This document shows positions 2,314 to 61,676 of a stretch of DNA of 64,000 nucleotides, piece by piece. A program made the translations under genes and the position numbers. This DNA comes from a virus. The notes below the pieces were generated by a model. It was not told the origin of the DNA and searched no databases. It worked only from the letters and a program-made list of their open reading frames with translations. Within the stretch, counting starts at the first letter, position 1; each line of letters opens with the position of its first letter. Location: IMG/VR virus record IMGVR_UViG_3300013093_000020. One strand, written 5' to 3'.

Positions 2314-2682
2314 TTACACCAAGATATTTCTAGACTCGTACAAATTTGAAACAGGTGCTATCCTATATCCTAGCAGGCTAGTTTTTTCTCTATAACTGTT
2401 TAAAATTTGTGCAACAACTTGGCTTAATGCAAGATCATTAAGGCCTTTAAGTGTATCTACCACAGACATGACGTTGACATTTTCTGACTTGGCTTGATTT
2501 AATAAAACTATGGCTGTGCTACGGGCACTAGATGGATCAAATCCTTTTTTCGTAAAGAACCCTACTACTGCATCTATTTGTTCTGCTGGAAATGTAACTT
2601 GATTTTGATAAAATTTATCAAAGATTTGTTTAACTGCAGAATCACTAGATGTTTGTGTTTGTATTGGTAAATTAGTTTGCAT
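2314..2682 (-). CDS. Hypothetical protein
   Basis: 122-aa ORF tightly packed in the operon. Confidence 0.75.
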   Translation of the reverse strand: MQTNLPIQTQTSSDSAVKQIFDKFYQNQVTFPAEQIDAVVGFFTKKGFDPSSARSTAIVLLNQAKSENVNVMSVVDTLKGLNDLALSQVVAQILNSYREKTSLLGYRIAPVSNLYESRNILV

Positions 2683-55646: not shown

Positions 55647-57413
55647 TTATGCAGCTGGAGGTGTTCCAGCACCACCCGGTGCCATTCCCGGAGCTGCAGG
55701 TGCTGCTCCAGCGCCGGCTGCGGCAGCTTCGTCAGCTGGATTAGTCATACCTTCTGGTGCTTCTAGGTCGCCAGCAGTACTCATGTCGCTATCGATGCCG
55801 GCAGAACTGAGTCCTGCACTACGCAATTCTCCGCTAGAATCAGTATGTGTAGGTTCACCTTTACCTGCTTCCTCGGCCCACATGCGTTCATTTTCTGCCA
55901 TTTCTTCGTCGGTTAATCCTAAGAAACGCTTGAGTGCAAAACGCTTGCTCATGTAGGGAATAGCTTGTACTGTATTAAATGTATTGATGCGCTCAGTGTC
56001 CATAGCAGCTTGACGACTGCTAGCAAAGTTCATTGGCGGATTGAACTTCAACTCAAATAAACTTGTATCTATGTTAAGTCCTTTTGAGTAAACAAATCGT
56101 TTAAATTCTAAATCAAAGCGTTCTGTAAGCAACATTTGTAAGCGTTCACAGTACTTGTTGAAGCGCAATTCTTGGATATAAGCTGTTCCCACACGCCCGT
56201 CATTGTAACTGCTTTGACTGTCTTCAGCGCCTGTTGGCAAATAACTGCTAGGAATACGCAAGCCACGGAATAATTTATTAGTAAAATATTTTAAGTCTTC
56301 AATTTCGCCCAAATTTGTTCCGCCTGGCAGTGTTTCTACCTTAGATCCACGACCATCTGCGGTGCTTGGGAAGAAATAATCTTCATTAATACTCAATGGA
56401 TTATAAGCACTGTCTATGACATTGGCTCCACCACCAGTCTGGCTAGGTATGCGTCGTTGATGTATTTCATTCTTTACACGCTCGACAAATGCCATAGCCA
56501 TGTGTGCAGGCATATTTCCAACGTCTACATGGAAAACTCTGCGTTCTGGTGCTCGTTGTATACGATAAATGATAATCGCATCCTCTAGTAGTTCTTTCTG
56601 CTTGTAGACTTTGAAGACATCTTCAAGCAGGCTAGTACCAAAAGGATACATGTTGTCTAGCCCTTCGCTTAGGCTTAGATGTATCACATGCTCGGCATTG
56701 ATAGCATGTTCAGTTTGTCCCATGCTGAAGCGGCTGCCTGTACCGCTTTGTGGGAAACTACCGGCTCCACGAGCTTGCGATCCCGAACCTAGATAACCTG
56801 ATCCGCCACCGCCTGACCCACTACCGCCGGCCATTTCTCTAGGATTAACATTAGGTGTAATTTGAGTAGCAACTAGATTTTCAAAGTTAGGCGCCAGATC
56901 TTTGATAATGTATTGTTCTGGCTTTTTACCGTCACTTTCATTGACAATTACTTTAGTAACTTTGCTAGGATCAACATAGACCCATTTCTGTGTTTCTGGA
57001 TCGCGAATAAAAAATGCATCACCGTATTTGAATGTGTTACGGAAGATACGGAATATTCTTGTGTCAAATTTTTGTAGCTTTGACCACTGTTGTAGGTACT
57101 CGCCTAGGATCTTAATTTCACTATTTGTAGCCTTGTGGCGCCAAAAAACTTGAAAAGGTGTCTTACCATCTTTGTTCTTCTGTGTGCAGAATTCTGCTAG
57201 AATATCTAAGGCAGCATTAATTTCAGGATCGCTATCCATGGTCTCATACTGCATGTAACGCTCTGCACGATTAGGTGCTCCGGCGTATACATCTGGTAGA
57301 TAACTTGAATAATTTGAACGAGCAGGTCCAGCTCTATTGCTAGAATTAATGCCACTGACCGGGCTCATTATTGTGCCAACGGGTGCTGGGCTAAAATATT
57401 TTTTCCAACTCAT
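55647..57413 (-). CDS. gp20: Portal vertex protein
   Basis: LLEDAIIIYRIQRAPERRVFHVDVGNMP, EDYFFP, VETLPGG.NLGEI.D..YF. Confidence 0.97.
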   Translation of the reverse strand: MSWKKYFSPAPVGTIMSPVSGINSSNRAGPARSNYSSYLPDVYAGAPNRAERYMQYETMDSDPEINAALDILAEFCTQKNKDGKTPFQVFWRHKATNSEIKILGEYLQQWSKLQKFDTRIFRIFRNTFKYGDAFFIRDPETQKWVYVDPSKVTKVIVNESDGKKPEQYIIKDLAPNFENLVATQITPNVNPREMAGGSGSGGGGSGYLGSGSQARGAGSFPQSGTGSRFSMGQTEHAINAEHVIHLSLSEGLDNMYPFGTSLLEDVFKVYKQKELLEDAIIIYRIQRAPERRVFHVDVGNMPAHMAMAFVERVKNEIHQRRIPSQTGGGANVIDSAYNPLSINEDYFFPSTADGRGSKVETLPGGTNLGEIEDLKYFTNKLFRGLRIPSSYLPTGAEDSQSSYNDGRVGTAYIQELRFNKYCERLQMLLTERFDLEFKRFVYSKGLNIDTSLFELKFNPPMNFASSRQAAMDTERINTFNTVQAIPYMSKRFALKRFLGLTDEEMAENERMWAEEAGKGEPTHTDSSGELRSAGLSSAGIDSDMSTAGDLEAPEGMTNPADEAAAAGAGAAPAAPGMAPGGAGTPPAA

Positions 57414-57416
57414 TCT

Positions 57417-59792
57417 TTATGACATCCTGTTTTGACTTAGGTTATTCAAACCGCGGACTTGCTTGGTACTATTGTCTGCAACTACTTCAAAATGTTGAAC
57501 AAGAGTAGCCATCATAGTATTTAATTGATTGATGCCTGCTGACAGATTATCTTGAGCATTAGCCTCAGGAGCAGCCGATGTTGCATCCACTTTTGGACTC
57601 GAATCTTTTTCTTTCTTATCAGTTTGTAGAGTATCTGTGACCTGTTTAAATGCCTGCACAAAGGATCCAATCCTTGTTTCTACACTTGTAGCATTGGTAT
57701 TTGTTATACTAGCAAATGTTTCATTTGTTTTGGCAAAAAGTGTTTGTAACTGATCAACAGGATTAATGTTAGATATAGCCGTGACTATATCATTTTTATC
57801 AGATGTTATCGGTGTTGTATCAACTTGTCGTTGTATTGGCAATTCTTTTATAGCATTTACCACAGCTTCAATAGGTATACCCTGTGTAGCCGGATTCATA
57901 TTCTTACCAAAGGCAGCACCAGTGCTGGCCAAATTTCCAATCTGATCACTTAGACTTCTAAATATCATTGGCAAACTATTGACATAGTCCGTTTCTTTGG
58001 GATTAAGCACACGCTCTCCGCGTTCTACGCTAGTCACTATATCTTCAGGTTCAACATTAAGACCGATCATACCCGTTGTACCTAAATCTCTCGTTCGTGT
58101 TCCGTCAGGATTAAAACGCTCTGGGTATCGACGTCTTTCTTCTGCTTCGCGAGCTTGTTTATCGGCATCTGATTGTGGAGTTGGTTGTGTGTTAGGATTT
58201 ATAGCCGTTGATGGCACGGCTGCAGCTTTTTTAGCTTTTTCTATTAGGTCGTCAACAAATGTATTCAATTGACCCATAATGGTAGGCAAAATTTTTGATC
58301 GTTGTTCTGCTGTGATCATAGATTCATTCCACTTGGTCAAATTAGTATTCATTTCAGATAGTCCGGTTTTTATTGCGGTACTATTTGCTAGATATCTATT
58401 AAGTTCCTCTGTCACTGTTAGATTTACTTTATCTAATGCTTGTTTGGCATTGTTAATAGCTATACTAGCTTGCTCACCTACGGGTCTTTCATCAGGTTTG
58501 GTTATCCTTTGATTTTTAACCATTTCATTATACAATATTCTTAGGCTAACATCATCTGTAATTTTTTGTTTTGTTGCTTCGGCGTAGGCCTGTGTTTGTT
58601 TTCTTTGCTCTTCAGTCAATGGACCAAAATATTTACTTTGTAGGTCTGTGGTCAATTTATCTATATTCTGGCCAGCCGGACCACTACTAGCCAATGCCGC
58701 TACCATTCCTAAGAATTTAGGATCGTTGACCATTTCAGACATTCGCTGATTGATCCTAATAGCCGCGGCATCGGCTTCTTTTAATTTTGCAGCTCGTTCG
58801 TCAGGATTCTGTGTCCTTGCGGCTTCATCATATAATCGCTTGTTAGCAGCCATTTGATTTTGAATTTCTGCAGGTATGGCAGCTACTAGAGCTTGGTCTT
58901 TAGCATCCATTACCCCAGTTCTTAATATTCTATTAAAGTCTGCTAACACTGGTGATGCAGCTGCAAATATCAATTGTTGTTCTTTATAGGCCTTAAGTTG
59001 CTCTCCACTCATTAGACTTTCTGCTAGTCTACCTTTTATGCTGTCACTAATAGCTTTAGTTTCTTCTAATAGTTTGTCTTTTTGTACACCATATAAGCCA
59101 GCTAGGTCGTACAACACATCGCTTAGGTGTAGAGCAGTACTGGTTGCTGTTGTACTGGCTTTCCCTCCTGCTTCTGAAAATTTATTTGTGTTGAATGTTA
59201 CATATTCTAGTGTCTTGGCAAATTCAGCTTCACCTACTCCTAATCTAAGAAGTCCTTGACCAAATTGATCCATCTTCATTTCTTCAAGGCTACTCATAAA
59301 AGTATTGATGCTGTCCTCATAAGTTCCGCCCATTCTACGGAGACTGTTTGAATTATTTTTTATAATGTCATTATATTCTGCAGATGAAAGACCAGTAGCA
59401 ATAACCTGTCGTCTAAACTCAAGAAGATCTATTCTGGTATCTCCAAACTTGAGATTCTCTCGCATGTTTTGATTAGCTTCTAGTGCGTCTTTACTAAAAA
59501 CTTTAAGAGCTTCGCCGGCAAATCCGCCAATTATAGGAAATAATTTGAGTGTTTCTGCAGATAATTCAAATACATTAGCTAGTGTTAGTGTGCCTGTGGC
59601 TAGATGGGATAGTGCGTTGCCAGCTATAATTGCGCCTGATTGTAAAGTATTAGTTAGACCATTCAGGGCAGCTGTTGTACCTGCAGCCGCTCCTGCTGCT
59701 GAGGTTCCGCCTAAGCCGCCGCTTCCCGGTATACCTTTTAGCAAGTCATCTATTTTCGTGATCAGGGACTCGACACTAGTTTCTACATTCAT
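57417..59792 (-). CDS. Probable tape measure / baseplate hub protein
   Basis: 791 aa, Ala-rich and helical, without catalytic motifs; divergent from the gp26-like gene. Confidence 0.6.
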   Translation of the reverse strand: MNVETSVESLITKIDDLLKGIPGSGGLGGTSAAGAAAGTTAALNGLTNTLQSGAIIAGNALSHLATGTLTLANVFELSAETLKLFPIIGGFAGEALKVFSKDALEANQNMRENLKFGDTRIDLLEFRRQVIATGLSSAEYNDIIKNNSNSLRRMGGTYEDSINTFMSSLEEMKMDQFGQGLLRLGVGEAEFAKTLEYVTFNTNKFSEAGGKASTTATSTALHLSDVLYDLAGLYGVQKDKLLEETKAISDSIKGRLAESLMSGEQLKAYKEQQLIFAAASPVLADFNRILRTGVMDAKDQALVAAIPAEIQNQMAANKRLYDEAARTQNPDERAAKLKEADAAAIRINQRMSEMVNDPKFLGMVAALASSGPAGQNIDKLTTDLQSKYFGPLTEEQRKQTQAYAEATKQKITDDVSLRILYNEMVKNQRITKPDERPVGEQASIAINNAKQALDKVNLTVTEELNRYLANSTAIKTGLSEMNTNLTKWNESMITAEQRSKILPTIMGQLNTFVDDLIEKAKKAAAVPSTAINPNTQPTPQSDADKQAREAEERRRYPERFNPDGTRTRDLGTTGMIGLNVEPEDIVTSVERGERVLNPKETDYVNSLPMIFRSLSDQIGNLASTGAAFGKNMNPATQGIPIEAVVNAIKELPIQRQVDTTPITSDKNDIVTAISNINPVDQLQTLFAKTNETFASITNTNATSVETRIGSFVQAFKQVTDTLQTDKKEKDSSPKVDATSAAPEANAQDNLSAGINQLNTMMATLVQHFEVVADNSTKQVRGLNNLSQNRMS

Positions 59793-59854
59793 AAAAAAAT
59801 TCCAAGAAATATGCGTATATAAATACTACATATTATATTTATCTGGAGCCCAAA

Positions 59855-60679
59855 ATGGCCATAAACAACCCTTTACAAAAGTATTTTAGACAGCCTAAGA
59901 TCTTTATCAAAATCCCCAGCGGTGGTGTCTACTGCCAAACTGGCACTATCAGTGGAGATCCTAGCAAGTTGGCCGTGTTTGGTATGACCGGCATGGATGA
60001 AATACTGCTGAAAACTCCAGATGCACTGCTATCCGGAGAAAGTGTAGTTAGGATTATAGAAAGCTGTGTGCCAGAAATCAAAGATGCTTGGGACCTCAGT
60101 AATATTGATATAGATGCTGTACTAAGTGCTATAAGGATTGCTACATACGGACAATCAATGTCGGTTACAAGAAACTGCCAAAGTTGCGGAGAAGAAAACG
60201 ATTACGATCTAGATCTTAGTTACATAATAGATCACTATAGCAAATGTGTTTACAACAGTCGATTAGTGCTAGACGACCTAGTTGTTACGGTCAAACCATT
60301 AACATATCGTCAAATGACTGATTTTAATTTAAGAAATTTTGAAATACAGCAACAGCTAAAGCAATTAGATTTAGAAGACAAGGCTAATAAAAAAATCTTA
60401 GCTGACATGTTTATACAGCTAGGAGAACTACAAAATGAAATATTTGCCGCCAGTATCGAAAGTGTCAGCACAGACAGTGTCACAGTTACCGAACGCGGAC
60501 ATATCATCGAGTGGGTACAAAACGCTGACATGGTGTTATTTGATCAATTAAAAGAACTAGCAGTGTCTAATCAACAAAATTGGGAAATACCTCAATTTGA
60601 TGTTGTATGCTCTCATTGTAATGCAGAGGGAAAAACAGCTATTCAACTTGACGCCGCAAGTTTTTTCGCGAAAGCCTAA
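59855..60679 (+). CDS. gp26: Baseplate hub assembly protein (T4 gp26-like)
   Basis: NPLQKYFRQP...IPSGG, MT..DEILLKTPDAL, D.DAVL.AIRIATYG and two CxxC pairs. Confidence 0.8.
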   Translation: MAINNPLQKYFRQPKIFIKIPSGGVYCQTGTISGDPSKLAVFGMTGMDEILLKTPDALLSGESVVRIIESCVPEIKDAWDLSNIDIDAVLSAIRIATYGQSMSVTRNCQSCGEENDYDLDLSYIIDHYSKCVYNSRLVLDDLVVTVKPLTYRQMTDFNLRNFEIQQQLKQLDLEDKANKKILADMFIQLGELQNEIFAASIESVSTDSVTVTERGHIIEWVQNADMVLFDQLKELAVSNQQNWEIPQFDVVCSHCNAEGKTAIQLDAASFFAKA

Positions 60680-60785
60680 TTAGATTACCCGCCTCAGAAA
60701 TACAAGATTATCTAGTTAGGCTAGATGTGCAGATTAAACAATTCAAAGAAGAACTATTTAGACTAAGTTGGTTCACTAGAGGCGG
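60661..60785 (+). promoter_or_regulatory. Candidate -1 programmed ribosomal frameshift signal
   Basis: In-frame T_TTT_TTC (60661-60667), 5-nt spacer, 13-bp stem (60673-60685/60710-60722), loop CCGCCTC (60689-60695) complementary to GAGGCGG (60779-60785). Confidence 0.7.
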
Positions 60786-60900
60786 AGTGTCAGTAACAGA
60801 ACTGTTGCATTATTATTCTGCCGAAGACCGAGAAATCCTAGATAATGTAATCAAATCAAATCTTGAAACTACCAAAGATTCAGGACTACCGTTCTTTTAA
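60661..60900 (+). CDS. ATG-less ORF in the -1 frame, gp51-like; probable frameshift extension of the gp26-like protein (not in the ORF track)
   Basis: Open for 79 codons (FFRESLIRLP...LSWFTRGGVS...LETTKDSGLPFF*); TGA at 60649 closes the frame upstream; it fills the gap exactly up to the convergent gene. Confidence 0.75.
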   Translation, partial: FFRESLIRLPASEIQDYLVRLDVQIKQFKEELFRLSWFTRGGVSVTELLHYYSAEDREILDNVIKSNLETTKDSGLPFF

Positions 60901-61676
60901 TTTGCTGCAGGAGCAGTCGGAGCTTGCGTAGGAAATTTCTTTCTAAATAAATGACCGTAGGTTGGTGATCCCGGTCTTATATCCTTGTACATATTCCAGT
61001 AAACAGTTTCAGCTTCCTTGGGATTATTTTCATCAGGCAAATTACTATCCGGTGGCGGAACATTAGATGCCGGAGGTTTTGGAATTTTACCATCGTCGTT
61101 GCTCGGAGGTGACGAAACATTGTCTATGGTACTGATACCAGTTGACGGGCCACCTTTAAGCAACCAATGTACAGGATCCTTGTCAGGAATAGGTCGATAC
61201 CAACCTTGCTTTTCCATCCATCGTGGATCTACTGTCTTGGAAACATCGATGGCATTTTTATGGAATATAATATCTTTGCGACCTTTATACTTAGGATCGT
61301 CAGGGTTTATTGGAATATAGACATTAGGATCTTTGTTCAGCCAACGGTTGTATAAATCTTTCTGCTGTTGATATGTGCGCTCTTGGCTAGTGATAGGTAG
61401 TTCTTTACCAAATTCAGCTTTGTAAGCCTGTTTGAGTTTTTCCACTGCCTGTTTGAATTGGGGCTGTACAGTTGGTGCAGGTTCTGCATGAGTAATACCA
61501 GATGCTTCGTCCGGAGTAACATCATAGACATAGACTTTGACTTTGTCTATCTGAGCCTTGTATTGAGGATAAGTTTTAATAATATAAGCTTCAAAAGTCT
61601 CATGTGCCATATTGTCGGGCACATCAAATCTTTCTTCTTTACCATCAGGAAATACTACTAAAACTTTCCTGGTCAT
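60897..61676 (-). CDS. Putative Zn-dependent peptidoglycan peptidase (M15/DD-peptidase-like) with a Pro-rich tail
   Basis: ITSQERTYQQQKDLY...H..AIDV...GWYRP...DPVHW. Confidence 0.65.
   Translation of the reverse strand: MTRKVLVVFPDGKEERFDVPDNMAHETFEAYIIKTYPQYKAQIDKVKVYVYDVTPDEASGITHAEPAPTVQPQFKQAVEKLKQAYKAEFGKELPITSQERTYQQQKDLYNRWLNKDPNVYIPINPDDPKYKGRKDIIFHKNAIDVSKTVDPRWMEKQGWYRPIPDKDPVHWLLKGGPSTGISTIDNVSSPPSNDDGKIPKPPASNVPPPDSNLPDENNPKEAETVYWNMYKDIRPGSPTYGHLFRKKFPTQAPTAPAAN

Follow-up and report, generated by a model that had tools for sequence, protein, structure and literature searches.

A conserved −1 frameshift of the tail assembly chaperone genes of long-tailed phages was reportedly described by Xu, Hendrix, and Duda in 2004. 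This G-T frameshift has been called conserved among long-tailed phages "except T4", a nearly universal feature to which T4 is named as the exception (Atkins et al. 2016, PMC5009743). The T4 proteins gp26 and gp51 have been catalogued as chaperones of hub assembly; gp51 is essential and of unknown function, and the roles of the two proteins in hub assembly have been unclear for decades (Leiman et al. 2010, PMC3004832).

Here we analyzed a 64,000-nucleotide stretch of viral DNA (the window), taken from the 149.7-kb record (estimated completeness 41%) of an uncultured giant phage related to T4, in which a gene of the gp26/gp51 family ends in a slippery heptamer followed by an extending −1 ORF. 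Judged by comparison of related loci, this gene very probably undergoes a conserved programmed −1 ribosomal frameshift, stimulated by a hairpin, by which a hub chaperone of the T4 family is made in a short and a long version. As in lambda gpG/gpGT, the slip site is located close to the 3′ end of a small assembly gene adjoining the tape measure gene (here a tape-measure-like gene), and the predicted products are a major short form and one extended at its C-terminus. In contrast to lambda, whose heptamer is G GGA AAG, the window has T TTT TTC; its protein is much larger (274 aa), with Cys pairs of the zinc-ribbon type, and the gene runs divergently from the tape-measure-like gene instead of lying upstream of it. 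The original prediction had described the products as a G/GT-style pair, and the analogy proved apt: as in G/GT genes, every slip-type homologue examined had a conserved X XXY YYZ heptamer toward its 3′ end and a −1 ORF that extends the protein. The prediction had also remarked that it knew of no description of such a slip for gp26/gp51-like genes; full-text literature searches turned up no account of one in gp26-like genes, and we found no GenBank annotation of one.

Organization of the gp26-like locus

The features of the locus are summarized in Table 1. Direct reading showed that the gp26-like ORF ends in AGT TTT TTC GCG AAA GCC TAA, with the heptamer in frame as had been predicted, and that the −1 frame opens after the TGA at 60649-51, contains no ATG, and runs to its predicted stop. 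The predicted products, 274 aa and 271 + 77 = 348 aa, likewise agreed with direct reading; the junction tryptic peptide expected of the long product is ..TAIQLDAASFFR and the corresponding zero-frame peptide is ..TAIQLDAASFFAK. The G that follows the heptamer makes the next −1 codon CGN, which encodes Arg.

Table 1. Coordinates of features in and around the gp26-like gene (positions in the window)
Feature	Position	Strand	Basis or remark
Portal gene	55647-57413	−	Beyond the 791-aa neighbor; PF07230 match, E 2e-109
791-aa neighbor, probably tape measure protein	57417-59792	−	Divergent from the gp26-like gene; position, composition, language-model features
TATAAATA	59818-59825	+	About 30 nt 5′ of the gp26-like start codon, inside the 62-nt gap between divergent genes
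Shine-Dalgarno GGAG	59846-49	+	5′ of the gp26-like gene
Short-product gene (274 aa; T4 gp26/gp51-family baseplate-hub chaperone)	59855-60679	+	PF12322, phrog_150
Slippery heptamer T TTT TTC	60661-60667	+	X XXY YYZ register; direct reading; invariant in slip-type loci
−1 frame tail of the long product	60661-60900	+	FF + 77 aa, then TAA 60898-900; protein-level conservation, tail profile
Conserved 11-bp hairpin, core GCCUAA/UUAGGC	60674-60721 (60674-84 / 60711-21)	+	Covariation; begins 6 nt past the heptamer
Proposed loop-to-downstream pairing, CCGCCUC (60689-95) / GAGGCGG (60779-85)	60689-60785	+	Complementary here; unsupported as a conserved element

Over residues 55-271, the 274-aa protein matched the Pfam family PF12322 (T4_baseplate) with 55.6 bits, above the gathering cut-off of 24.5, and this match was reproduced by a six-frame genome search; it also matched phrog_150 ("baseplate hub"). 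Alignments showed little or no variation at C108, C111, C252, C255, F270, and F271. The two Cys pairs (C108/C111 and C252/C255) are kept in the short product, which carries the ..FF motif near its C-terminus. T4 gp26 ends in ..CPECG..KEFFELL, so that the conserved Cys pairs and the C-terminal FF are common to the window protein and T4 gp26. The closest cultured relatives were jumbo myoviruses at about 30% identity (RaK2, Atu_ph07, XaC1, PBECO4-like phages, and Serratia BF), and blastn at the DNA level returned no match among cultured phages.

AlphaFold2 modeled the short form of the window with a pLDDT of 94.6 and one natural long form with a pLDDT of 88.4 and a pTM of 0.85, its tail being composed of four helices. 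The viral predicted structures that matched were "baseplate hub" proteins from many myoviruses. The window proteins had no match to the tail assembly chaperone families of Pfam and PHROG; Foldseek against the PDB returned nothing, and a sequence search of solved structures returned nothing relevant. A wide VIA structure search gave a best Z of 4.6 with one model and 7.2 with the other (generic helices), its rows being at noise level, and one model alone hinted at the chaperone chains 3klu and 2ob9 (Z 3.9-4.6), which the window's own model did not reproduce. We accordingly regard the resemblance to G/GT as one of logic, not of family.

The gene had been placed beside a tape measure gene. It does adjoin the 791-aa gene listed in Table 1, whereas the tape measure identity of that neighbor is indicated by position, composition, and language-model features and not by a family match: the protein matched nothing in Pfam or PHROG, and its nearest language-model neighbors were tape-measure families (score 0.93). 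The order portal, 720-790 aa protein, and divergent gp26-like gene also occurs in RaK2, XaC1, and Turkey5. The RaK2 record annotates the counterpart of the 791-aa neighbor as similar to a tape measure protein, and BLASTP between the window protein and this positional counterpart found no similarity. The canonical G/GT position, between the tube gene and the tape measure gene, was seen only in a distant clade (L186), where the latter gene is tape-measure-like.

The predicted slip site, the −1 tail, and the downstream hairpin in related loci

Within the window, TTTTTTCG occurs twice against 2.0 expected, the second copy lying at 2545-2552 (+). The heptamer alone is thus not above chance, and its significance comes only from the comparison with homologues. 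Conservation of TTTTTTC among homologues had been proposed as a check, and the heptamer was found in every slip-type homologue examined: together with the following G, it was unchanged and in the same register in all of the approximately 170 related loci that have the tail in another frame, including eight cultured jumbo phages that share only about 30% protein identity. The figure of approximately 170 counts locus reads, in batches of 84/84, 73/73, 12/12, and 4/4 that share some contigs. The heptamer with a homologous −1 tail was present in 80 of 80 IMG/VR loci with 47-57% identity, in 73 of 73 further loci with 25-31% identity to a fused relative, and in 12 of 12 loci from a search with RaK2.

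Elsewhere in the slip-type genes Phe is encoded by TTT in 86% of cases, whereas TTC is used without exception for the motif's second Phe. At the codon usage of these genes, the spelling NNT TTT TTC for x-F-F has an expected chance of 0.046 per independent lineage. T4, which has no −1 tail ORF, spells its FF as TTC TTT. Because the register of the heptamer and its C are bound by two overlapping protein codes, the nucleotide invariance depends in part on the protein evidence. U UUU UUC is not known as the most efficient slip site in bacteria.

The tail begins at the slip site and is 72-79 aa long in each slip-type locus, and all 73 loci of one batch had it in the −1 frame. The tail alignment was gap-free, with the consensus FFRxSLIxLxxxEIEEYLVRLD..FKxELFRISWYMRGGV..DLL..YS.EDR....II.ENIE.TK...MPL. 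The protein is conserved from the first codon past the slip (FFR) while synonymous sites vary, with four codons in use for the Arg at codon 2 and five for the Leu at codon 8. The −1 tail alone had no match in Pfam or PHROGs. None of the GenBank records examined annotates slippage; the tail is either given as a separate hypothetical protein or omitted.

A 13-bp stem with one G-U pair at 60673-85 / 60710-22 had been proposed downstream of the heptamer. This stem is real and corresponds to the minimum-free-energy fold (−17.8 kcal/mol, z = −2.8), with the zero-frame stop TAA at 60677-79 within its 5′ arm. Covariation among homologues, another proposed check, was found for the 11-bp core (Table 1), a hairpin with a large loop of 26 nt: 93.8% of cells were paired across 51 distinct sequences, and five pairs had changed on both sides. 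None of 500 shuffles matched the observed values, and slid registers paired in only 14-54% of cells. The synonymous sites of the 3′ arm are frozen (GTT 91%, AGG 96%), whereas other Arg positions use up to six codons.

The same stem had been extended to a pseudoknot. The two segments, CCGCCTC and GAGGCGG in the DNA, are present and complementary as claimed, whereas in homologues their pairing is at chance level. A match of 7 bp was the modal best match of shuffled loops; across homologues, 64% of cells were paired in register compared with 33-54% when the partner was slid, and the synonymous sites of the partner codons (R-G-G) vary freely. We therefore rejected the pseudoknot as a conserved stimulator, the simple hairpin alone being conserved.

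Downstream structure differed in other lineages. Atu_ph07 has a different strong structure starting 7 nt downstream (z = −5.3), and the RaK2-like clade has weak downstream structure (z −0.3 to +1.4). Most members of the latter clade (L002-L004, L173-L178, L192, and L193) lack the GCCUAA hairpin and have weak predicted hairpins only, and in most of them a GCTTCTC-type word is conserved about 7 nt past the heptamer. The stimulator of the RaK2-like clade, if any, would thus appear to be unlike that of the window's clade.

Fused and two-gene relatives and the T4 pair

A profile of the tail matched 279 proteins among 1.84 billion representatives, many of which were miscalled fragments of 41-98 aa. 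Nineteen of the matches were proteins of 319-351 aa with the tail at the C-terminus, and in all eight that were scanned the tail lay in frame behind PF12322. The junction in the fused proteins, x-F-R-x-x-L, falls where the slip would join the two frames, and no heptamer is present there. A further match, P0196 (1435 aa; Listeria-Bacteroides repeats, PF09479), was hit at E 6e-10 over five stretches and is probably a compositional or repeat artefact.

In all seven loci with an in-frame long gene, a tail-less PF12322-like paralogue was directly adjacent, and this tail-less copy ended 4-8 codons past the conserved F in five of the six loci read. In contrast, no second PF12322 copy was found in any of the 73 slip-type loci within flanks of up to 8 kb, often shorter. 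T4 has two PF12322 genes, whereas RaK2, Atu_ph07, XaC1, and Turkey5 have one each in their complete genomes; the window's virus record, 41% complete, also has one.

The tandem pairs (L093-L099) consist of a long gene with the tail in frame and a short gene, the latter upstream in L093-L097 and downstream in L098 and L099. Their bodies and tails are like those of the slip-type gene, whereas they comprise two genes without a heptamer or an overlap. On this comparison, we take the pairs to be natural two-gene equivalents of the slip-type gene; lineages without the slip have a separate gene for each form, as apparently does T4 with genes 26 and 51. In a quick, unfinished tree, the long and short copies of L098 were sisters inside the slip-type lineages, the long and short copies of L093-L097 fell into separate clades, and T4 gp26 grouped with gp51. 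This topology weakly suggests that the duplication happened more than once, the signal being weak because of the long branches in the tree.

PF12322 covers residues 1-206 of 208 in T4 gp26 and residues 1-201 of 249 in T4 gp51, so the two T4 proteins are paralogues, with gp51 carrying an extra 48-aa tail on which a newer Pfam family, PF28602, sits. T4 gp26 ends a few residues past the conserved FF, like the short product here, and gp51, like the long product, extends the shared body by a C-terminal tail; genes 26 and 51 are adjacent. T4 differs from the window in having two diverged genes and no frameshift instead of one gene with a slip signal, and the tail of gp51 is 48 aa long compared with 77 aa in the window product. 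A shorter in-frame product, 26′, is annotated in the T4 record; the products predicted here include no counterpart of it.

The −1 ORF had been called gp51-like. By hhalign, a narrow tail alignment comprising the window's clade gave nothing against the T4-type gp51 tail, and a wide tail alignment gave P 0.0026 and a probability of 12% in the expected register. The natural long forms matched the gp51 family at E 1.1e-4 with a probability of 57%, and the alignment was collinear from residue 34 to residue 327 of 336, tail on tail. The label therefore suits the whole long product better than the −1 ORF, which at best resembles only the gp51 tail, and the comparison moderately supports a gp51-like long form.

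In a distant marine-type clade (L185-L191; e.g. L186:3207-7511), the PF12322 genes lack a slippery heptamer and end in ..ADFFW..stop. They are followed by a tail-like ORF (..LKYSGGWSFSEAYNLPVGLRKWFVERL..) that is in the +1 frame and has a conserved ATG of its own 4-8 nt past the stop; production of this tail may depend on coupling or reinitiation, or else on a +1 slip at TTT_T. The gene order in L186 is gp19-like tube, PF12322 gene, tail ORF, and an 850-aa tape-measure-like gene, which corresponds to the lambda V-G-T-H order.

Proposed decoding of the gene and alternative explanations

In the decoding that we propose, a single PF12322 gene would be read in two ways. Most ribosomes would pass the heptamer in the zero frame and stop four codons on, giving the 274-aa product. 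A fraction would pause with tRNA-Phe on UUU in the P site and on UUC in the A site while the hairpin stands at the mRNA entrance; these ribosomes would slip by −1 onto UUU UUU, read CGC as Arg, and continue through the remainder of the 77 codons to give the 348-aa product, whose additional C-terminal tail is helical. In the G/GT system both products are needed in a set ratio and are absent from the virion, the body binding the tape measure and the tail the tube. The analogy with lambda gpG/gpGT and T4 gp26/gp51 suggests that both forms may act together as non-virion chaperones for the hub and the tape-measure part of the tail, one task falling to the shared body and another to the tail that the minor long form adds. 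We infer the slippage itself, its efficiency, and the binding partners of each product.

The −1 ORF could instead be an independent small gene, translated either from an internal start, which here would be the GTG at 60727, or by ribosomes that reinitiate past the upstream stop. GenBank records do carry separate small CDSs for the tail in XaC1, Turkey5, Atu_ph07, Serratia BF, Munch, Phosso, and BF17, and the tail-like ORF with its own conserved ATG in L185-L191 shows that the tail can be encoded apart. However, the start-like codons of the window's −1 ORF are limited to two GTGs (codons 22 and 42) and one TTG (codon 48), with no ATG among them, and the GTG at 60727 was present in no other sequence compared; an independent start there was rejected because this codon is unique to the window. 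Among 54 distinct sequences, the −1 frame opened exactly at the heptamer in 10, and none had an upstream start-like codon in that frame. The first common start-like codon is codon 38, an ATG in 53 of the 54 that is absent from the window, and initiation there would lose 38 conserved residues. Since protein conservation begins at the slip site, where natural fusions also join, independent initiation is ruled out as a general mechanism, and we consider an independent small gene very unlikely at this locus.

Transcriptional slippage, in which RNA polymerase would add one U within the U6 run and a minority of mRNAs would carry the tail in frame, would use the homopolymer that is present and yield an identical protein (..SFFR..). 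However, useful transcriptional slippage in bacteria is known from runs of about eight or more residues, whereas the run here has six and never reaches T7 or longer in slip-type loci. A covarying hairpin also stands at a spacing typical of ribosomal frameshift stimulators, and to our knowledge such a hairpin has no role in polymerase slippage; this explanation is therefore improbable. That no recoding takes place, the open −1 frame and the heptamer being a by-product of composition or a decaying remnant, agrees with the chance-level frequency of the heptamer within the window. Against this, we estimate that a 79-codon open frame would arise by chance in only about 0.4% of cases at the window's composition, the approximately 170 locus reads, with identities of 25-57%, all keep the tail, and both fused and two-gene versions occur in nature, which leaves this explanation with hardly any credibility. 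Programmed ribosomal frameshifting remains our preferred reading, although the large loop of the hairpin, the weak downstream structure in the RaK2-like clade, and the rank of U UUU UUC among bacterial slip sites count against it.

The conserved slip signal and the natural fused and two-gene versions link the T4 exception to the problem of what gp26 and gp51 do, and this link predicts that the short form corresponds to gp26 and the long form to gp51. We give roughly even chances to the broader proposal that in the gp26/gp51 family the T4-type myoviruses have their long-sought tail assembly chaperone, the G/GT equivalent, with one −1-frameshift gene being usual outside T4 and T4 genes 26 and 51 representing a duplicated, frameshift-free resolution that has arisen more than once. 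If this is true, a textbook exception, T4 without a G/GT system, would be removed. The frameshift reading itself also corrects annotation in many phage genomes, in which the tail is at present unannotated or called a separate hypothetical protein.

Two further observations concern the flanks of the gene. The upstream sequence TATAAATA fits what we take to be the T4 late-promoter consensus and occurs in two copies in the window against about seven expected by chance; it may tentatively be viewed as a late promoter of the gp26-like gene. At the other end, a convergent 259-aa ORF (60897-61676, −) overlaps the −1 tail ORF over the final 4 nt of the latter, has weak PHROG matches to endolysins (E 6e-4), and is Pro-rich in its C-terminal part.
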